A stretch of DNA of 64,000 nucleotides from an uncultured Chloroflexia bacterium (GTDB lineage Bacteria > Chloroflexota > Limnocylindria > QHBO01): positions 64,001-128,000 of the forward strand of contig CAWFCQ010000006.1 of assembly GCA_963814375.1 (NCBI GenBank), given 5' to 3'. Positions 2,903 through 41,304 of this stretch are shown here, piece by piece. The notes beneath the pieces are model-generated. The model worked only from the letters and a program-made list of their open reading frames with translations. It made no database searches and had not been told where the DNA came from. How positions within the stretch are numbered: position 1 is the first letter of the stretch; each line of letters begins with the position of its first letter. The translations under genes were made by a program, and so were the position numbers.

Positions 2903-4240
2903 CTAGGGTGGCGCCTGGCGCCGGAGCCGCTGCCATCGGCTCAGGGCGCGATGGTTCTCCGCATCGGTGAGCACACGGTCGCCGTACTGAGCGAGCGCGT
3001 AGTCCGCCTGGAGCCCGGCCAGCTCGGGTCCGGCCACCACACGGCGTGCATGGGATCGGGGTGTCTCGTGCTCGGCGCGGGCGGCCGGCGGCCGACGGAC
3101 GGCAAGGTCGTCGAGCGCGGCGAGATAGGCGGTGACCGCGTCGTGCGGGGCCGCCCGCCGCGGGCCGGACACAGAGGGCCCACGCGCTGGTCGGACGCGC
3201 GACGAACGTTGCGGGATGCGGAATGAGCGCTCGTCAGTGCCGGCGCGCCCGAGCCGGCCGACCCTTCGCCGGAGCCAGACGCGCGCGAGCACGAGCACCA
3301 CCACGACGAGCACGATCCACAGCACGAGGAGCCCGGTGAGCGGCCCGCGGACCTGCTCGAACTCGTAGGCCTCCGGGAACGCCATGCGCCCGAGCTGCTC
3401 CGGCGTCATCGGCTGCGGCAGCTGGATCCCGAGCGAGCGAAGGGCCGATGCGAGCACGACTGCCACCAGCGCAGCCACGGTCAGTCCGCCGATCAGGAGG
3501 TAGCCGAAGCCGGTGACGATGGGGCCAAGGATGCCGCGGGCGACCGCGTCACCCGGCAGGCCGAGCAGCATGCTGGTCGGGATTCCGATCGCCAGCACCA
3601 CGACGATCACGCCGAAGACCGTGCCGAGCCACGACCTGTCGTGGCGCCAGTCCACGCCGGTCTCGCGGCCGATCTCGCGGAGGCGAGCCAGCCCGGCGGC
3701 GATGAAGCCGGCGGTCACGAACGTGAGGCTGGCGACGAACGCCTCCTCGGTGAAGACGGGCCGCAGCACGCCCGATCCGAGCTGGCCGATCACCCACGGG
3801 ATGGCAAGCAGCGGGATGCCAAACAGCACGAAGCGCGTGATCTCCCGGTCGTCGACCTCGATTCCGCGTCCGACTCCGCGCATGCCCGCGACGACCATCA
3901 GCCAACCGCCGGGATGCAGGGTGATCGCCGTCAGCGGGTCGCCGGCCAGGAGCGTCTCGCGGACTCGGTCATCCCACAGCCAGCCGACGAGGCCGAGGGC
4001 CGCAAGCAGGACGAGGAACCTTCCGAAATCGACGTCCGGGTCGAGCCAGCGCCGATGCACGAGCAACGCCGCGATCCCGGCGGCCAGGGCGAGCTCGAGC
4101 GTACCGAGCAGCGGCTGGCGATGGTCGACCGCGGTCTCGATGGCGACGTAGAAGACGGCGAGGAAGGCACCCTCGGCCACGATGGCCAGCGTCGGAAGCA
4201 GCCAGCCGAGGACGCGGTCAGCGGGCCAGGGCGAGCGCAT
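2903..4240 (-). CDS. Polytopic membrane protein with C-terminal DUF4129-like domain
   Basis: Many TM segments; C-terminal RAEHETP..HARR...Y..AQYG; follows DUF58. Confidence 0.7.
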   Translation of the reverse strand: MRSPWPADRVLGWLLPTLAIVAEGAFLAVFYVAIETAVDHRQPLLGTLELALAAGIAALLVHRRWLDPDVDFGRFLVLLAALGLVGWLWDDRVRETLLAGDPLTAITLHPGGWLMVVAGMRGVGRGIEVDDREITRFVLFGIPLLAIPWVIGQLGSGVLRPVFTEEAFVASLTFVTAGFIAAGLARLREIGRETGVDWRHDRSWLGTVFGVIVVVLAIGIPTSMLLGLPGDAVARGILGPIVTGFGYLLIGGLTVAALVAVVLASALRSLGIQLPQPMTPEQLGRMAFPEAYEFEQVRGPLTGLLVLWIVLVVVVLVLARVWLRRRVGRLGRAGTDERSFRIPQRSSRVRPARGPSVSGPRRAAPHDAVTAYLAALDDLAVRRPPAARAEHETPRSHARRVVAGPELAGLQADYALAQYGDRVLTDAENHRALSRWQRLRRQAPP

Positions 4241-5459
4241 CGGCCTCTCTCCAGGATGGGTCGAGCGAACCGGTCTCGGCATCGATCCCCGCCGCGGCCG
4301 CCGTCAACCGATGCTCGCCGCGCGCCGCGCCGGTCGCGACGAAGCGGACCGCGTAGCCGGAGCGCGCCAGCCTCCGCATCGGCTCGAGGTAGGGGCTCGG
4401 ATCTCGCGCGCTGATGACGAGGACGGTGCCGCCCGGGGCGAGACGGCGTGGCACGACCGCGAGGAGCTGCTCGAAGGGCAGGGAGAGGATCGGCTGAATG
4501 CGGGCGAGGAGGTCCTCGATCCGCCCGAGCTGTCCCGGCGCGCTCGACGGCGGCAGGTACGCCCAACGCCGGCCGCCGGCCAGCTGCGCGCCGATGAGGA
4601 GGCCGGCCGCCGCACCATCGCGCAGGAAGCGCCGCGAGAGCGAGGCAGCAGAGACACACAGTCCCTCGAGCTCGTCGTCATCGAACAGCATCAGCCAGTG
4701 CGGCCCGGGCACGGTCTGGAGATCGAGGGCGATCAGCACCTGTCGCTCGTTGACGGGCTCGAACCGACGGCTGACCGGCCGGCCGATGCGGGCGGTGGCG
4801 CGCCAGTGGATGCGGCGAGGCGGGTCGCCCGGCTGGTAGGCGCGCACCCCGGCGAAGCGCGATGGATCGCTGAACAGGCTGGTGGCGGTCCGCGTCGCGC
4901 CCAGCGGCGAGCGAGCAGGTTCGGTCGGGCGCACGGGCACGGTCCGCGGTCGGACGAGCAGCTCGCCGGGCAGCTCCCTCTCTTCGGCGTTCGTTCCTCG
5001 CTCGAAAAGGTCGCTGACGGTGAGACGCACCGGTCCGAACGTGAAGACCCCTCGGCGTCGGGCGTCGATCGCCAGGTGACGGACGACGCGCTCGTACCAG
5101 AGCAGGGACCACGCGTTCTGGAGCGTCGCGCGGCCAGGCCGGTCGCTCGGGCCGAGCTTTCGGCCGACGATGCGCAGTGAATCGGTGACGTGATCGTCCG
5201 CGACGAGCAGCGGGACCGGGAGCAGCTTCTGGTTCCAGACCTCGAGCTCGAGCGGGACCTCGTCGCCCCACACCGCGCGATCAGTGCCGATGCGACGCTC
5301 GAACACCACGCGCTCGAGCCCGTAGCGTGACCACAGCGTGGTGAGCCATCGGCTGAGGACGGTCAGCCCTCCGACCAGCAGCAGGCCCGGCGCGCCAACC
5401 GCCGCACCGACGAGGATCATCGCCAGGCCGATCAGCGTCCAGCCGCCCATGCTGGGCAT
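4218..5459 (-). CDS. DUF58 family protein
   Basis: GVRAYQPGDPPRRIHWRATAR motif; RRGVFTFGP. Confidence 0.92.
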   Translation of the reverse strand: MPSMGGWTLIGLAMILVGAAVGAPGLLLVGGLTVLSRWLTTLWSRYGLERVVFERRIGTDRAVWGDEVPLELEVWNQKLLPVPLLVADDHVTDSLRIVGRKLGPSDRPGRATLQNAWSLLWYERVVRHLAIDARRRGVFTFGPVRLTVSDLFERGTNAEERELPGELLVRPRTVPVRPTEPARSPLGATRTATSLFSDPSRFAGVRAYQPGDPPRRIHWRATARIGRPVSRRFEPVNERQVLIALDLQTVPGPHWLMLFDDDELEGLCVSAASLSRRFLRDGAAAGLLIGAQLAGGRRWAYLPPSSAPGQLGRIEDLLARIQPILSLPFEQLLAVVPRRLAPGGTVLVISARDPSPYLEPMRRLARSGYAVRFVATGAARGEHRLTAAAAGIDAETGSLDPSWREADALALAR

Positions 5460-6448
5460 CAGGCCACCGACGCGCCGACGCCCACCGAGACCTCCCCGAC
5501 GATCGTGGCCAGGGCGCCGGCCGCGGTCGCGCCGCGGAGCTCCCGATCGACATCCACCACGAGCCGATGGGTCAGCACCGGCGCGACGAGCTCGACCACA
5601 TCATCGGGCAGGACGAAGTCGCGTCCGGTCAGGTACGCGGACGCCTGTGCCGCGCGATAGAGCGCAACGCTGGCGCGCGGGCTCGCGCCGAGCTGGAGGT
5701 CCTCGTGCTCCCGGGTCGCGCGGACGAGCCTCACGAGGTAGCGCTCGACCTCGTCGCTCACGGTGACCGATCGGACCGCCTGACGGAGGGCCGGGAGCTC
5801 GTGCGTGTCGAGCACCGCCCCCACGGCGTCGAGCGGCTCGGCCGTCTCGCGATACCGGCGGGAGATTGCGCGCTCATCGGCCTCGTCCGGGTAGCCGATG
5901 GCGATCCGCACCAGGAACCGATCGAGCTGTGCCTCCGGCAGCGCGAAGGTGCCCTCGAGCTCGACGGGGTTCTGGGTCGCCATCACCAGGAACGGCGCCG
6001 GCAGCGGGCGGGTCTCACCGTCCACGCTCACCTGGCGCTCCTGCATCGCCTCGAGCAGGGCGGACTGCGTTCGCGGCGTGGCGCGGTTGATCTCGTCCAC
6101 CAACAGCACGTTGGTGAAGATCGGCCCGGGGATGAATCGGAAGGCGCCATCGGCCAGGACGCTGCTGCCGGTGACGTCGCTGGGCAGCAGGTCAGGCGTG
6201 CCCTGGATGCGTCCGAACGTCAGGCCGAGGGAGCGGGCGAACGCGTGCGCCAGCAGGGTCTTGCCCACGCCTGGCACGTCCTCGATCAACGCGTGACCCT
6301 CCGCCAGCAGAGCGACCGTCATGAGGCGAAGGGGCGCATCGGCGCCGATGACCGCACGGGCCACGGCGTCGCGCAGGCCGCCCCAGAGGCGTTCGCCGGC
6401 GTGCGGATCGGTCAAGGAGCTCTCCCGTCGTTCGTTCACACCGAGCAT
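5459..6448 (-). CDS. moxR: MoxR family AAA+ ATPase
   Basis: EDVPGVGKT, TPDLLPSD, DEINRATPRTQSALLEAM, ATQNP; start uncertain. Confidence 0.95.
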   Translation of the reverse strand: MLGVNERRESSLTDPHAGERLWGGLRDAVARAVIGADAPLRLMTVALLAEGHALIEDVPGVGKTLLAHAFARSLGLTFGRIQGTPDLLPSDVTGSSVLADGAFRFIPGPIFTNVLLVDEINRATPRTQSALLEAMQERQVSVDGETRPLPAPFLVMATQNPVELEGTFALPEAQLDRFLVRIAIGYPDEADERAISRRYRETAEPLDAVGAVLDTHELPALRQAVRSVTVSDEVERYLVRLVRATREHEDLQLGASPRASVALYRAAQASAYLTGRDFVLPDDVVELVAPVLTHRLVVDVDRELRGATAAGALATIVGEVSVGVGASVA

Positions 6449-6483: not shown

Positions 6484-7554
6484 GTGACGGCGACCGTGCC
6501 GATCCCTCTCATCGCCTCAGATCACCACCTCGAGCACGACGGCCTCGTCGAGCTCGTCGCCGGGCGCGAGGTTCCGTGCTACGAGTCGCCCGAGCGCGCG
6601 ACGGCCATCCGGGAGGCGCTGCTCGCCACCGGCGCCTACGCGCTGGAAGCGCCCGAGCAGCACGGTCCCGATCCGATCGCCGCCGTCCACGAGCTCGAGC
6701 TGATCGACCTCGTCGAGCATGTGTGGACCGATGCCGTGGCCGCCGGCCACGACCCAGGCCGGCCGATCCTGCCGGACACGTTCCTGCTGGGTGCATATGC
6801 CGGCGCCATGAGCCTTGAGCAGCTTCCCGTTTCGCGGCGTGACCGCCTCGGCGCGTACTGCTTCGACACAGCCACGCCGATCGTGGCCGGTACCGCCGAT
6901 GCCGCGCTGGCATCGGTCGACATCGCGCTCACGGCGCTCGACCGCGTGCTCACCGGAGCGCCGCTCGCCTACGGACTGTGCCGTCCGCCGGGCCATCACG
7001 CCGGGCGCAATCTCATCGGCGGCTACTGCTTCTTCAACAACGCCGCCATCGTGGCAGAGGCGGTCGTGGCGCGCGGGGCCGAGCGCGCGGCGATCCTCGA
7101 CATCGACTTCCACCACGGCAACGGCACGCAGCAGATCTTCTGGGATCGCGGAGACATCCTCTACGTCAGCCTGCATGGCGACCCGCGCGGGATCTACCCG
7201 TACTACTCGGGCTTCGCGACCGAGCGTGGCGCCGATGCCGGCGAGGGCGCCACCCTCAACCTGCCACTGCCGCCCGGGACCGATGGCGACGCCTACCTCG
7301 CCGCCCTCGAGGAGGCGCTCGCCGCCATCCGCAGCTTCGATGCCGATGCTCCGCTCATCGTGTCGCTCGGCTTCGACACCTACCACGCCGACCCGATCTG
7401 CAACCTCGCGCTCCAGACCGATGATTACGCACGGATCGGCGCGGCGATCGCGGGCCTGCGGATGCCGGTCGTCACGCTCCAGGAGGGCGGCTACGCGGTC
7501 GAGGCCCTCGGCGCCAACGCGGTTTCCTTCCTCGGCGGCCTCGGCTCGGTCTGA
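6484..7554 (+). CDS. Histone deacetylase family protein (acetylpolyamine amidohydrolase-like)
   Basis: ESPER, RPPGHHA, GGYCFFNNAA, DIDFHHGNGTQ, SLGFD, QEGGY. Confidence 0.92.
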   Translation: MTATVPIPLIASDHHLEHDGLVELVAGREVPCYESPERATAIREALLATGAYALEAPEQHGPDPIAAVHELELIDLVEHVWTDAVAAGHDPGRPILPDTFLLGAYAGAMSLEQLPVSRRDRLGAYCFDTATPIVAGTADAALASVDIALTALDRVLTGAPLAYGLCRPPGHHAGRNLIGGYCFFNNAAIVAEAVVARGAERAAILDIDFHHGNGTQQIFWDRGDILYVSLHGDPRGIYPYYSGFATERGADAGEGATLNLPLPPGTDGDAYLAALEEALAAIRSFDADAPLIVSLGFDTYHADPICNLALQTDDYARIGAAIAGLRMPVVTLQEGGYAVEALGANAVSFLGGLGSV

Positions 7555-7708
7555 TCGACGGCAACCAGGACGGCTCGCCACCGCGGTCGGAGCCTCCCAC
7601 CATTCTCTTCCTGACTATCGAGAGCAGCGCAGTCGAGTGAGGCGCGGCGGCGCTTGAGTCGTATCTCAGTCAGTGGCACCACGATTGCGAATGCGAGCAA
7701 CCCTTGGC

Positions 7709-7767
7709 TTGACACACCCTAGACAAACGCTGTAATCTCGCGACCGAATCTGTACAAACAATGGACA
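7709..7767 (+). promoter_or_regulatory. Sigma70-like promoter overlapped by CarH/LitR-type 11-bp TnnACA direct repeats
   Basis: TTGACA 7709, TAGACA 7720, TGTAAT 7731, then TGTACA 7751, TGGACA 7762; -10 TAATCT 7733-7738. Confidence 0.65.
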
Positions 7768-7799
7768 CTATGCTTCTCAGCGACGCACAGCCGAAGCGC

Positions 7800-8768
7800 T
7801 CAGGCTCCCGGATCCTCGATGCCGGCCAGACGCACGACCGCCTGCCACAGGAACCGCCGATCGCGCTCGCTCACGCGGGTCATCGGCACGCGGTCGTACG
7901 GACGCGCGGCTCGATCGTGGACGAAAGCGCCGGCCAGATGGGCGATGTCCGGTTCGGTCGCGAGCCAAACGAGCGTGTCGACGCCTTCCAGAGGCGTGCG
8001 CAGGATCGGCTTCATCGTCCCGGCAAAGCCTGGCAGGGAGGCCGACAGTCCGGGCGTTGCCGCCCAGCCCGGATGCATCGACGCGAACGTGATCCCGCTT
8101 CCCCGCAGCCGGCGAGCCCATTCGCGGATCAGCATCACCTGCGCCCGCTTGGCGTGGGCGTAGACGCGCGGGCCGGAGAACGGCCTCTCTTCCCACAGGA
8201 GGTCGTCGAGGAGGAGCGCCTGTGTGTACATCCCGCCGGAGCTGACGGAGAGGACCCGCGACCCGGGCGTCGCGCGGAGGATGGGCAAGAGGCCCGCGAT
8301 CAGCGCGAATGGGCCGACGACCATCACCCCGAGCGTCGACTCGATCCCGTCGGCCGTGACCGTGCGCTCGGGGAACATCGCCCCGGCGTTGTCGATCACG
8401 ACGTCGATCCGCGCCTCGGTCCGAGAGATCTCGCCCGCAGCGCCGCGCACCGACGACAGCGACGACATGTCGGCCACCACCGTGGCGAACCGATCCTCTC
8501 CGTGACGGGCCAGCAGCGCCTCGTGGACGGCACCCAGCCGCTCGGGGCTGCGGCCAACGAGGATGACGCGGGCGCCAAGGCCCGCGAGCACATCGGTCGC
8601 CGCTCGTCCGAGGCCCGAGGTCGGGCCCGTTATCACCACGGTCTTTCCGCGCAATGCTCCCGGCTCCGCGGCGTGCCATCCGAACAAGTGCTGGCGCGCC
8701 CGGATCCCGATGTTCGAGAAGCTCCCGATGACCGTGATCTCGAGCGCCACATCGATCAGCTTTCGCAC
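7800..8768 (-). CDS. SDR family oxidoreductase (DHRS12-like)
   Basis: ITGPTSGLG, DNAG, VSSGGMY, YAHAK, MHPGWAATPG. Confidence 0.9.
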   Translation of the reverse strand: MRKLIDVALEITVIGSFSNIGIRARQHLFGWHAAEPGALRGKTVVITGPTSGLGRAATDVLAGLGARVILVGRSPERLGAVHEALLARHGEDRFATVVADMSSLSSVRGAAGEISRTEARIDVVIDNAGAMFPERTVTADGIESTLGVMVVGPFALIAGLLPILRATPGSRVLSVSSGGMYTQALLLDDLLWEERPFSGPRVYAHAKRAQVMLIREWARRLRGSGITFASMHPGWAATPGLSASLPGFAGTMKPILRTPLEGVDTLVWLATEPDIAHLAGAFVHDRAARPYDRVPMTRVSERDRRFLWQAVVRLAGIEDPGA

Positions 8769-8803
8769 CCGCCCATCTTGCCCGCAATTGCCCGGAGGCA
8801 CAT

Positions 8804-9262
8804 GTGACCCGCCTGAACGAACGCATTCGCACGCGCCTTCCGATCGAGGAGGCATTCAGCTACCTGGCGGACTTCGCCAACTCGGAGGAGTGGGATCCGG
8901 GTACCGCGACCGCGGCGCGCATCGGGTCGGGCCCGGTCGGCGTCGGTTCTCGCTACGAGCTCGGTGTCCGGCAGGGCGATCGCGTCGTGCCGATGGAATA
9001 CCGGATCACCGTGCACGAGCCGCCAAGGCGCGTCGTGCTGGTCGGCTCCGGTTCGGGCATCGAGGCGACCGACGAGATCCGGTTCGAACGCGATGGCGAC
9101 GAGACCATCGTCGACTACACCGCCGATATTCGGCTCACGGGGCTCCTGAGGCTCGTTCAGCCCTTCCTGGGAGGCACGTTCCGAAAGATCGCCCAGGATG
9201 CGTCTGACGGGATCGAGCGCACGCTGGCGTCGCGGGCGGCAGGGCTCGAGGGCGGATCATGA
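8804..9262 (+). CDS. SRPBCC/polyketide cyclase family protein
   Basis: [24 protein letters not shown]; GGAGG RBS. Confidence 0.85.
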
Positions 9263-10543
9263 GGGTGGGGATCATCGGCTCGGGAGTCGGCGGACTGACC
9301 GCCGCCTACGCGCTGCACCGCGACGGCCACGACATCCGGCTGTTCGAGGGCGAGCCCGCGCCGGGCGGCCACGTCAAGACGGTCGAGGTGGACACGCCCG
9401 CGGGGCGCCTGGGGATCGACACCGGCTTCATCGTATACAACGAACGGACGTATCCCCGCTTCGTCGCCCTCCTCGCCGAGCTGGGGGTGGCGACGCAGCC
9501 CAGCGACATGTCGCTCGGCGCTTCGTGCAGCGCGTGCGACCTCGAGTGGAGCACTCGCGGCCTGCGCGGCTACTTCGCCCCACCCGCTTCGCTGGCGAGC
9601 CCGGGTCACTGGGGCATGCTCAATGACCTGCTGCGGTTCTATCGGGAGGCGCGTCGGCGACTCGACGCGATGCCGGCGCTGGAATCGACGACCACCCTCG
9701 GAGCATTTCTCGACGCGCATGGCTATCGGACCGCGTTCCGCAGCCACTTCATCCTGCCGCTCACGTCGGCCGTCTGGTCGACCGCCGCGAATCGGATCCT
9801 CGACTTCCCGGTCGACTACCTGCTCCGGTTCCTCGATCATCACGGCCTGATCGGCCACGGCAATGACCTCCAGTGGCGGACCGTCTCGGGCGGGTCGATG
9901 CGCTACGTCGACCGCATCCTCGCGGCCCTGCCCGTCCGCGGAGTGCGCAGCGGCGACCCGGTGGTGGACGTCGCCAGGAGATCGTCCGGATGCATGGTGC
10001 GCACCGCCTCAGGGCATGCGGAGGCGTTCGATGCGGTCGTCCTCGCGACCCACGCCGACGACGCCCTCTCCCTCCTCCACGACGGCGACGCCCGCGAGCG
10101 AGCTGCCCTGGGCGGGTTCGAGTACACGACGAATGATGTCGTCCTCCACACCGATGCGAGCCTGCTTCCGCGACGCCGAAGGGCGCGCGCATCGTGGAAC
10201 GTCGACCAGACCGACTGCCGCGTGCCGGGCGAGCGGCTCACGATGACGTATCACATGAACCGCCTACAGTCGTTACCGGGCGACACTCGAGTACTGCACC
10301 TCGGTCAACCCCGACCGGGACCGCCTGGACCCCGCCACGATCCTCGCGGAGCGCGCGATGCGCCACCCGCTCTACACCTTCCGAACGCTCCGGGCGCAGG
10401 CCGACGTCGAGGCGATCCAGGGTTGGCGGAACACCTTCTATGCCGGAGCCCACCTCGGGTACGGATTCCACGAGGACGGCTGCCGATCCGGCTTCGCCGC
10501 CGCCGAGATGATCGCGGCCGATGCAGCGGCGGCGGCCGCATGA
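9259..10543 (+). CDS. FAD-dependent oxidoreductase (UfaD-like desaturase), frameshift near 10288
   Basis: [25 protein letters not shown]; C-terminus [14 protein letters not shown] lies in the next frame (10358-10543). Confidence 0.88.
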
Positions 10544-11281
10544 GATCCCATCTCCTCGAGGGCAAGGTTCGGCACCGCCGCGCGAAGCCGTTCACCTACG
10601 CGCTCGAGCACGACGTCTTCTATCTCGGCCTCGATCTCGATGAGCTCGACGAGGTCCCGCGGCGGGTGCGGATCGTCGGCCGAAATCGCCCGAACCTGCT
10701 CACGTTCCGGGACGCGGACCATCTCGATCCGCCGGCGGAGGATCTCGCGGCATCGGTTCGCGACCATCTTCGCGACGCCGGAGAGCGGCCCGAAGGATGG
10801 CGCATCACGCTCGTCACCAATCTGCGTGTCCTCGGCTATGTCTTCAATCCCGCAAGCTTCTACCTGTGCCGCGACCTGGACGGCGTCCTGCGCGTGGTGA
10901 TCGTGGAGGTCCACAACACGCATGGCGAGCGGCACCTCTACACGCTGCGTCCGCAGCACTCAGGAGCGCACTTCACCTCGTCCATGGAGAAGAGGCTTCT
11001 ACGTCTCTCCGTTCATCGACGCAGCCGGCAGCTACACCGTGCGGGTCCGGGACGAGGCGCAGCGTCTCCGGATCACGATCAACGAGGAGAGCGAGGGATC
11101 GCTCCAGCTCCACACCAGCGTCGATTTGGCCAGACGCCGCTTGAGCTCGCGCGCCGTGGCAGGCATGTTGCTTCGGCACCCGTTCGTGACGCACAAGACG
11201 ATAGGCCTGATCCATCTCCACGCCCTGCGCCTGTGGCGCCGCGGTGCGCGATTCCAACGCCACGGGCAGGCAGCATCGTGA
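10540..11281 (+). CDS. DUF1365 family protein (UfaO-like), frameshift near 10996
   Basis: [27 protein letters not shown], then FYVSPF and [12 protein letters not shown] in next frame; ATGA overlap at start. Confidence 0.88.
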
Positions 11282-12522
11282 CCTCGGCTGCGTCCACCAA
11301 CCGGGTCGGCCGCGTTGCGGTGCCGGTCCTGGCGCATTCGGCGGAGCGCGCGCTCCTCGCAGCCGCCTCGAAGATTCGAATCGGCCGCCTCGAGGTCACG
11401 CTTCCGGACGGCTCGCGGCAGGCGTTCGGGGACGCCGAGGCGATCCAGCGGGGCGAGATCCATCTCCACGACCGCGCCGCCTATCTGCGGATGCTCATCG
11501 GCGGCGAGACCGGGGCCGGAGAGGCGTATGTCGACGGTCTCTGGTCGAGCCCGGACCTGCCCGCGCTCCTCCGCGTCGCGGCCCGCAACCGGGATGCGCT
11601 CGCGCTCTCGACGGGGCTGCTTCGAGCGCCGGACCAGCTGCGTCGAACGATCGCCCATCGGCTCCGGCGCAACACGAGATCGAACGCCCGACGCAACATC
11701 AGCGCCCATTACGACCTGGGCAACGACTTCTATCGCCTCTGGCTGGACGAGACGATGACCTACTCGAGCGCCGTCTTCGATTCACCGGACCAGTCCCTGG
11801 CCGATGCCCAGCGCAACAAGTACCGGCTGATCGCCGAGGGTGCCGGCCTGCGGCCGGGCTCGCATGTCCTGGAGATCGGGTCGGGGTGGGGCGGCTTCGC
11901 CCTCTACGCCGCCGGTGAGCTCGGTTGCCGGGTCACATCGATCACGATCTCGCGCGAGCAGGCGGACCTCGCACGTGCTCGGGTCCGCGCGGCCGGGTTG
12001 GCCGACCGGGTCGAGATCCAGCTGCGCGACTACCGCGACATCGAGGGCACCTACGACGCCGTGGTCTCGATCGAGATGCTCGAGGCAGTCGGCGCCGAGT
12101 ACTTCGCGGCATTCTTCCTCGCCTGCAGCCGCGCCCTGACCCCGGGGGGTCGCCTCAGCATCCAGACGATCACGGTCCCGGACGTCGGCTATCGCAGGCA
12201 GGTGAGCGGGGCGAACTGGATCCAGAGGTACATCTTCCCGGGCGGGGCCCTGCCTTCGCTGGCCGCCATCGAACGCTCGCTCCACGGCACCGGCTTCGTC
12301 GTCACCGGCGTGCGGGACATCGCGGCGGACTATGTGCGAACGCTCCGCGCCTGGCGATCGGCCTTCATGGCCCGGCGCGACGACGTCGTTGCGATGGGCT
12401 TCGACGACCGATTCATCAGGACCTGGGACTACTACCTCGCCCTCAGCGAGGCCGGCTTTGCGACGGGCGTGACGCAGGACCTTCAGATCGTGCTGGAGAA
12501 GCGCCTGGCCGCCAACGGCTGA
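11278..12522 (+). CDS. cfa: Cyclopropane-fatty-acyl-phospholipid synthase family methyltransferase (UfaM-like)
   Basis: [42 protein letters not shown]; GTGA overlap. Confidence 0.92.
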
Positions 12523-40740: not shown

Positions 40741-41304
40741 GTGCGGATCTACACGCGAAAGGGTGATACGGGCACTACGGGCCTGCTGTTCGGAGGGAAG
40801 CGCGTGAGCAAGGCCGATGCGCGTACCGAGGCTTACGGGACCACCGATGAGGCCGTCTCGGCCCTCGGGCTGGCACGCGCATCCATCGGTTCCGCCACTG
40901 ACCGAACCGAGGCCCGGCTGACCGAGCTGATCGTCCGGCTCCAGCGCGAGCTGTTCGTGGTCGGCGCCGAGCTCGCCACCGGCCTCGATCGACGCGACCG
41001 GCTGACGGACGGCGTCTCGCGAGTCACCCCCGAGATGGTGAGCGCCCTGGAGGCCGAGATCGATGCGCTGGAAGGGCTGGTCGAGCAGCCGAAGGAGTTC
41101 GTCGTGCCCGGCGAGTCGGCGACCGGCGCCGCGTTGGACCTGGCGCGGACGACGACCCGCCGCGCCGAGCGCCGCGCCGTGGGCCTGGCCGAGATGGGCG
41201 AGCTCCCCGACTCCCAGGTCGTGCCGTACCTCAACCGGCTGGCGGACCTGCTATTCGTGGCCGCCCGCGCCGCCGATGGAGGCTTCCTTCCGGTCCGCGA
41301 CTGA
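40741..41304 (+). CDS. pduO: ATP:cob(I)alamin adenosyltransferase (PduO type)
   Basis: IYTRKGDTGTT, AYGTTDE, RRAER, YLNRLADLLF. Confidence 0.93.
   Translation: MRIYTRKGDTGTTGLLFGGKRVSKADARTEAYGTTDEAVSALGLARASIGSATDRTEARLTELIVRLQRELFVVGAELATGLDRRDRLTDGVSRVTPEMVSALEAEIDALEGLVEQPKEFVVPGESATGAALDLARTTTRRAERRAVGLAEMGELPDSQVVPYLNRLADLLFVAARAADGGFLPVRD

Follow-up and report, generated by a model that had tools for sequence, protein, structure and literature searches.

What would a light-regulated promoter do in the gap between two convergent genes, where it has no ordinary gene to serve? The locus that raises this question lies in a stretch of 64,000 nucleotides, called the window here, from an uncultured Chloroflexota lineage; below, G000 denotes the genome of the window, C6 its contig and C7 another contig of G000. 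At positions 7709-7767 of the window, two pairs of 11-bp direct repeats with a TnnACA core surround a candidate promoter. This element is very probably the operator-promoter of a repressor of the CarH family, whose members are photoreceptors that use coenzyme B12 (adenosylcobalamin, AdoCbl). As judged from sequence, the operator belongs to the known CarH type, and what appears to be new is its layout, together with the signature that this layout has left in the DNA. The whole picture that we consider probable, with less assurance, is that of a CarH-repressed promoter, a translated antisense leader across a short-chain dehydrogenase (SDR) gene and, beyond it, an operon of an SRPBCC gene and genes resembling the ufa set.

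The element is made up of three parts.

7709..7725, plus strand: operator pair 1, two direct repeats of 11 bp whose TnnACA cores are TTGACA (7709) and TAGACA (7720); the first core doubles as a -35
7731..7738, plus strand: degenerate third repeat TGTAAT (7731-7736) and the overlapping -10-like TAATCT (7733-7738), 18 bp after the -35
7751..7767, plus strand: operator pair 2, TGTACA (7751-7756) and TGGACA (7762-7767), 42 bp after pair 1

These six hexamers had been named in an earlier account of the window, drawn from its letters alone (the sequence-only reading), and all are found where it placed them. The AT-richer patch that it described is also real, with a GC content of 0.53-0.54 at 7650-7799 versus 0.70 for the window. 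The published CarH operator is described as an array of tandem 11-bp nnnnTnnACAn repeats, three in Thermus and four in Bacillus megaterium, with the -35 inside one of them and with pseudo-repeats tolerated (PMC9304148). At least two tandem repeats are expected of such an operator, and they occur here at 7709/7720 (with the degenerate one at 7731) and at 7751/7762. An overlap with the promoter is likewise expected; the first core, TTGACA, is the predicted -35 and the third, degenerate repeat lies over TAATCT, which aligns with the TGGTATCGT/TGCTAGAGT-type -10 elements of relatives. Assuming a transcription start about 7 nt past the -10, pair 2 would occupy positions of about +5 to +22.

In the window, the pattern TNNACA-N5-TNNACA is matched twice, both times at 7709-7767, against a mean of 0.13 in dinucleotide shuffles; at least two matches were reached in 1 of 100 shuffles. 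On both strands of the whole of G000 there are 13 matches, 7 of which fall in four loci, while the remaining 6 look like chance or DnaA boxes. When scored with a weight matrix derived from 26 sites, these 7 sites reach 22.4-29.8 bits (pair 2, at 29.4 bits, is the second best in G000), the next best site reaches 17.5 bits and a simulated genome has none above 18; since the 7 sites are part of the training set, all that the matrix shows is the absence of further strong sites. A chance origin of the repeats is rejected by the shuffles, the genome-wide counts and the separation of the matrix scores. Reading TGGACA/TGTCCA as a DnaA box was also considered, and was dropped because only 6 of 9 positions fit the box. 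Classic DnaA boxes that fit the TnnACA pattern are present at C7:238877, where two tandem TTATCCACA boxes lie 11 bp apart and mark a candidate replication origin.

A suitable repressor is encoded in the genome. A profile search of G000 (2.52 Mb in 8 contigs, 89% complete) detected a single frame with both the B12-binding_2 and the B12-binding domain, at C6:167543-168460, which is 96 kb from the site on the same contig and outside the window. The predicted protein has 306 amino acids, with MerR_1, B12-binding_2 and B12-binding domains. Its N-terminus (residues 2-66) matches PF13411 MerR_1 with an E value of 1.1e-13 and aligns with that of Thermus CarH; PF02607 is matched with an E value of 1e-11, and PF02310 at 32.3 bits in one scan (cut-off 32.1) and 31.2 bits in another, the Rossmann part being borderline. 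The closest solved structures are those of Thermus thermophilus CarH (3WHP, 5C8D/E/F; E value 3.5e-25), and the W-x9-EH stretch and the histidine of RHExG align residue for residue with 5C8D/3WHP. In Thermus CarH, the former lies over the upper face of AdoCbl and the latter serves as its lower axial ligand. The AdoCbl chromophore that CarH needs would be supplied by an enzyme encoded in the window.

40747-41271 (C6:104747-105271), plus strand: PduO-type ATP:cob(I)alamin adenosyltransferase, PF01923 with an E value of 9e-51

The sequence-only reading had called for a CarH/LitR homolog somewhere in the genome and for control in trans. The three-domain homolog, with Thermus CarH as its closest solved relative, answers to the first, and its being the single CarH of G000, encoded at such a distance on the same contig, agrees with the second. 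The reading had also held that no regulator adjoins the operator. This is true of G000, but in relatives a carH paralog, an ECF sigma gene or both stand at this promoter.

The 7 matches in G000 outline a small predicted regulon.

Locus 1, 7709-7767: two matches
Locus 2, between carH and a divergent DUF4397 gene: two matches, in an array of five repeats spaced by 11, 12, 11 and 11 bp
Locus 3, C6:171599 (171569-171615): a single pair directly upstream of an SRPBCC-epimerase gene
Locus 4, C7:3906/3852 (C7:3797-3932): a double pair upstream of a gene for a 103-amino-acid, secreted-looking protein

A contiguous array is found in G000 only at the carH promoter. The C7 locus reads pair, TTGACA, 18 bp, TAGCAT, 13 nt, pair, and thus has in common with 7709 a pair over the -35, a -10 and a second pair 12-13 nt later. 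The secreted-looking protein has no Pfam family, and its gene is divergent from a PNPOx-like gene (general stress protein 26-type). At locus 3, about 13 nt separate the end of the pair from the start codon of the 314-amino-acid fusion of SRPBCC and NAD-epimerase, the mRNA of which is possibly leaderless. If the repeats are CarH sites, they should be found at the regulator's own promoter and in genomes that have carH. Indeed, a relaxed pair is present within 200 nt upstream in 28 of 30 carH loci of the genus, with offsets fixed at about -40 and -74 or -92, and a carH match is present in 12/12 genus genomes with the SDR-side promoter, versus 35/61 overall. The search for further TnnACA arrays near light-related genes, which the sequence-only reading had proposed, has yielded three more loci, one of them beside a photolyase remnant, but no carotenoid genes were seen at any of the four. 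The remnant itself, beside carH at C6:169394-169627, is a 77-amino-acid frame holding only the first 56 positions of the DNA photolyase domain; it sits after the putatively CarH-controlled DUF4397 gene and before a DUF427 gene, and looks like what is left of a photolyase gene in a predicted light-regulated island.

The genes on either side of the promoter define the problem.

6484-7554, plus strand: histone-deacetylase-family gene, called by phase of GC content at third codon positions (GC3) and by Pfam
7800 to about 8771, minus strand: SDR gene, Pfam adh_short with an E value of 1.5e-24 and GC3 frame; the start is placed by alignment with relatives
8804-9262, plus strand: SRPBCC (Polyketide_cyc2) gene, with a GTG start behind GGAGG
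9259-12522, plus strand: FAD amine-oxidase-like, DUF1365 and CMAS/cfa-like genes, a single run-on frame of 1087 codons with partial Pfam matches

A 245-bp gap separates the convergent deacetylase-family and SDR genes and holds the plus-strand promoter, which is aimed at the SDR 3' end; from pair 2 to the SDR stop there are 33 nt. The site is intergenic, as had been stated, but a gap between convergent genes is no ordinary upstream region. Similarly, the cfa, DUF1365 and FAD-oxidoreductase genes that had been linked to LitR regulons are present at 9259-12522, but 1.0-1.5 kb farther on, and no ordinary gene follows the promoter directly. The evidence suggests a departure from the sequence-only reading in both target and mechanism, with a promoter that would fire into the SDR 3' end from between convergent genes. 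According to the GC3 and Pfam calls, an opposite-strand gene, the SDR, lies between the promoter and a set of co-directional genes, which is the layout of an excludon. The SDR and SRPBCC starts are only about 32 bp apart, and this leaves little room for divergent promoters. In Pfam domains and gene order, the FAD-, DUF1365- and cfa-like genes resemble ufaD-ufaO-ufaM.

The gap was also inspected for other products. None of its small open reading frames (20-74 amino acids) is convincing, and no hairpin or terminator was found in 7690-7840. Folding of 7745-7840 (plus strand) and 7690-7805 (minus strand) is no better than that of shuffles (z of +1.2 and +1.4), giving no sign of a structured RNA, and an Rfam scan of 7300-8100 with E values up to 10 returned only chance-level sR15 (16 bits) and CDKN2B-AS (12.9 bits), and hence no known RNA family.

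With the SDR protein as query, 22 orthologous loci were collected from 19 genomes of the genus; an unpublished genome, G006, enters only among those counted in some denominators, and no claim is built on it. The loci fall into four classes according to the repeats.

Class A, one locus (G021 C18): pairs between SDR and SRPBCC
Class B, 6 loci in 4 genomes (G072 twice, G022, G045 twice, G021): the same operator drives an ECF sigma gene of about 205 amino acids
Class C, 8 genomes (G000, G062, G053, G066, G008, G061, G041, G070): double-pair promoter immediately beyond the SDR 3' end, without an intervening gene
Class D, 7 loci (G055, G005, G074, G017, G076, G054, G001): no pair within 1.5 kb

The double-pair site 3' of SDR is thus found in 8/19 genus genomes with an SDR ortholog, that is, in G000 and seven others. 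The class C SDR proteins are 61-74% identical to that of the window, and in an alignment of the eight genomes the invariant columns are the TnnACA cores and two positions of the -10, whereas the intervening columns vary. The sigma gene of class B (a Pfam call) ends just before the SDR stop and a carH paralog is divergent from it. The best match of G000 to the ECF sigma factors of its relatives has 42% identity and is therefore probably not an ortholog of this light-linked factor. In other genera of the taxonomic class, such a promoter is separated from the SDR 3' end by a carH, DUF4397 or sigma gene. G346, from another family, has a divergent carH, and there too the promoter points at the SDR without an intervening gene. 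Conservation of the repeats in relatives, which had been named as a test, is therefore seen at the same place in seven other genomes of the genus and in one of another family. In G008 and G041, an inserted gene for a luciferase-like monooxygenase (339-1340 of the G008 locus) separates the deacetylase gene from the operator, indicating that the operator travels with the SDR 3' end and not with the upstream gene. G072 and G045 each carry two near-identical carH-sigma-SDR-SRPBCC copies on different contigs, due either to recent duplication or to redundant contigs in the bins.

The signature mentioned above lies on the strand opposite to the SDR.

7761..8807, plus strand: antisense open frame of 348 codons, codon-aligned antisense to the SDR; its TGA overlaps the SRPBCC GTG start (GTGA)
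7761..7763 and 7770, plus strand: two in-frame ATG codons, the possible starts of this frame

The frame is open from a TGA inside the -35 hexamer to the TGA at the SRPBCC start. Taken singly, such a frame means little in a genome of 70% GC, and this must be set against our interpretation: among the 529 G000 genes with 280-400 codons, 183 are free of TTA, CTA and TCA and hence have a stop-free antisense frame. Comparison across loci is more informative. In 11 class B and C loci (one locus per genome; G021 C16 left out), the SDR genes comprise 3554 codons, 247 of them A-ending, and not one is TTA, CTA or TCA. About 18 would be expected from the flanking genes of the same loci, which have 24 such codons among 323 ending in A. 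In contrast, the 8 class A and D loci contain 12 in their SDR genes, versus 9-13 expected. This comparison was extended to the taxonomic class with 58 additional loci, leaving out G328:C179 (at a contig edge), G132:C29 (partial) and the second copies in G128, G072 and G045. Zero antisense stops are found in 20/22 loci that have only the upstream plus-strand pair, versus 17/56 others (Fisher test, 1.7e-6), and in 8/10 versus 15/47 outside the genus of the window (p 0.01), although these Fisher values overstate the case, as related genomes are not independent. The others break down into loci with both kinds of pair (1/2 stop-free), with pairs only between SDR and SRPBCC (6/16) and with none (10/38).

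The end of the frame also differs between loci. Among stop-free loci with an SRPBCC neighbour, the frame stop overlaps the SRPBCC start (A/GTGA) in 11/16 with the upstream promoter versus 0/11 without it, and in the 11 frame-locked loci the spacer between SDR and SRPBCC measures 33-99 nt, always a multiple of three. At the other end, an in-frame ATG occurs just after pair 2 in 6/8 class C genomes; the nearest one precedes the SDR stop by 27-33 nt (a multiple of three) in five of these six and by 9 nt in G062. Class B loci have an in-frame GTG that the stop codon of the sigma gene overlaps or adjoins. What is retained seems to be the frame and not its product. Four-fold sites of the SDR have diverged like those of the flanking genes (0.475, n=8698, versus 0.463, n=9409), which argues that the antisense amino-acid sequence is not under selection; nor does common descent account for the absence of stops, synonymous sites being close to saturation.

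The mechanism that we infer, in its binding, light response, transcript extent, translation, role of Rho and effect on the SDR alike, would run as follows. In the dark, AdoCbl-CarH oligomers on both repeat pairs, one over the -35 and one after the -10, would block RNA polymerase. Light would break the CarH oligomer, as can be expected from the family, and the promoter would fire. The plus-strand transcript would then cross the whole SDR gene in antisense (7800-8771) and continue into the genes for SRPBCC, FAD-oxidase, DUF1365 and cfa-like methylase, a set resembling the ufaD-ufaO-ufaM pathway for furan fatty acids, which would protect membranes from singlet oxygen. The 1-kb antisense stretch may be kept as a translated frame, 7761/7770-8807, with a stop that overlaps the SRPBCC start. 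Rho acting with NusG terminates untranslated transcripts, antisense ones included (PMC11551753), which provides a reason to keep an antisense spacer translatable, and a rho gene is encoded in G000. Ribosomes trailing the polymerase across the SDR would shield the transcript from Rho and pass to the first real gene. By the logic of excludons and noncontiguous operons, the same transcript should oppose SDR expression.

We lean slightly towards read-through with a translated antisense leader. Its fullest form is put forward as a tentative proposal that falls a little short of an even chance: the SDR antisense strand would be translated and would form the first 'cistron' of an operon induced by light, about 350 codons being held stop-free and in frame with the next start while their amino acids are free to drift. 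The act of translation would itself be the function (escort past Rho and delivery of ribosomes), the same transcript would silence the SDR in the light, and the arrangement would be conserved across several genera of an uncultured Chloroflexota class.

A number of observations weigh against this interpretation. The exact 11-bp period of the sequence-only reading holds inside each pair but not between the pairs, which are in separate registers; their distance of 42 bp is 3x11+9, or 2 bp off the 11-bp register, and amounts to about four helical turns. A contiguous array of three to five repeats in one register, as in footprinted CarH operators, is absent from 7709-7767. Of the promoter that had been proposed, TTGACA stands as a -35, but TAATCT agrees with TATAAT at only 3/6 positions (TAnnnT) and, with its 18-bp spacer, is a weak -10; a consensus promoter and terminator scan of 7000-9400 called neither (0 and 0). 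Two stop-free expectations fail, since G326 and G101 have the upstream promoter and yet one antisense stop each. G053 and G070 have no in-frame ATG, only GTG, CTG or TTG, and no Shine-Dalgarno-like stretch precedes ATG 7761/7770, although SRPBCC has its GGAGG. The DUF1365 gene is split over two frames, with a shift near 10980-10996 and the C-terminal half (profile positions 137-233) in the other frame at 10922-11281. This is either a real disruption, in which case the operon may be decaying in G000, or an assembly indel. Finally, the only RNA run found, the metatranscriptome X1, contained 0.05 of the sampled words and gave contigs of 151-352 nt at 90% likeness and a depth of 2-3; these are mostly 90-95% alike, i.e. 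from relatives, and are uninformative on strand, start and continuity.

The promoter might instead have a light-induced antisense RNA against the SDR as its only product, with SRPBCC and the genes after it served by a promoter of their own in or just after the SDR. The orientation towards the SDR 3' end, 33 nt away from pair 2, would suit this model, and the excludon principle on which it draws is established (PMC7154746). Moreover, in genus genomes of the class D type, which lack the upstream promoter, the spacer between SDR and SRPBCC is also short (45-89 nt). Another promoter must serve the operon there, and one inside the SDR could do so everywhere, which speaks against read-through as well. 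However, an antisense RNA needs no open frame. The absence of antisense stops where about 18 were expected would be left unexplained, as would the A/GTGA overlap with its 11/16 versus 0/11 distribution and the spacers in steps of three, and we consider this model unlikely. A second possibility, very unlikely in our judgement, is that carH, the ECF sigma gene or both were deleted in this lineage and that a useless orphan promoter was left behind. It would agree with the four genus genomes (6 loci) in which the same double-pair operator drives the sigma gene, with carH paralog divergent, with the carH or DUF4397 gene that lies between promoter and SDR in other genera and with the poor best sigma match in G000. 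Nevertheless, the gene-less layout has been kept in eight genomes whose SDR proteins have diverged to 61-74% identity, with four-fold sites near saturation and the TnnACA cores invariant, and it recurs in another family. A dead promoter would not come with stop avoidance downstream.

Two further explanations seem to us less probable still, and about equally so. OmpR/PhoB-type response regulators also use 11-bp direct repeats, and such a protein might bind here, carH being merely one of its targets. Binding by CarH is a prediction, the cores can also be read as GTnAC-N6-GnnAC, which resembles the boxes of actinobacterial response regulators, and a pair spacing of 34-54 bp is unlike the contiguous arrays of studied CarH operators. 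Yet the motif fits the published CarH consensus down to the -35 overlap, lies upstream of 28/30 carH genes and adjoins the photolyase remnant and genes of a singlet-oxygen type, and no other regulator gene adjoins it regularly in the loci inspected. The remaining explanation is that the 348-codon frame encodes a functional protein, which would make it a genuine antisense gene overlapping the SDR at the same locus. In favour of this, it has no stops, is locked in frame and has an in-frame ATG in 6/8 genomes. On the other hand, no Pfam family was found for it, its N-terminal stretch outside the SDR is not conserved, and the SDR four-fold sites, which correspond to first codon positions in the antisense frame, show no more conservation than those of the flanking genes. 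On these grounds a conserved antisense protein was rejected.

CarH is a well-studied photoreceptor and optogenetic tool, but apart from those of a few cultured bacteria its natural regulons have mostly been predicted. The present system shares with CarH of Thermus thermophilus, Bacillus megaterium and myxobacteria (PMC9304148) the 11-bp TnnACA repeats, the TTGACA -35 inside one of them and the degenerate repeats; the regulator shares the MerR helix-turn-helix, the B12-binding module and autoregulation, the last being suggested here by the repeats at its own promoter. It differs in that the three to five contiguous repeats of studied operators are replaced by two separated pairs (42 bp apart here, 52-54 bp at others) around the -10, and in that the host belongs to an uncultured Chloroflexota lineage, with no carotenoid genes at the four loci and no conventional downstream gene. 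In the LitR-LitS system of Streptomyces, a B12-type MerR regulator stands beside a light-induced ECF sigma factor. G072, G022, G045 and G021 resemble this system in that a carH paralog is divergent from an ECF sigma gene with the operator between them. Unlike these, the G000 locus is without both genes, and only the operator-promoter is left, on which the single CarH would act in trans.

Excludons and noncontiguous operons, described from Listeria and Staphylococcus aureus, contain an opposite-strand gene within a co-directional set, so that the long mRNA is also antisense (PMC7154746, PMC11034616). The backwards SDR between promoter and co-directional genes is of this kind. In our case, however, the arrangement is read from sequence and the transcript is a prediction, and the antisense stretch bears marks of translation (no stops, a frame locked to the next start, indels in threes). 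We found no description of stop-free, translated antisense spacers in the titles and abstracts of the papers searched on excludons and noncontiguous operons. The ufaD-ufaO-ufaM genes of Rhodobacter sphaeroides and Rhodopseudomonas palustris are furan fatty acid genes, UfaO carries DUF1365, and Rhodobacter cells deleted for chrR are reported to accumulate more furan fatty acid (PMC7380195). The genes at 9259-12522 would likewise encode an FAD-dependent enzyme, a DUF1365 protein and an S-adenosylmethionine-dependent cfa-like methylase in that order, whereas control by CarH would replace the singlet-oxygen response through ChrR, and the SRPBCC gene and the backwards SDR are extra.

The four loci make up a compact predicted CarH regulon in an uncultured soil lineage, none of them with carotenoid genes, and would link B12-dependent light sensing to a probable furan-fatty-acid pathway, which yields a scavenger of singlet oxygen. 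If the proposed layout is confirmed, noncontiguous operons can leave a signature of antisense stop avoidance and frame locking that is searchable without RNA data, and the locus would provide an example of selection that acts on a reading frame and leaves the product alone.

Just upstream of the deacetylase gene, the minus strand carries two further genes.

4218-5459, minus strand: DUF58-like gene, named from the look of the sequence only
5459-6448, minus strand: MoxR-type AAA ATPase gene

The two adjoin directly, stop to start.

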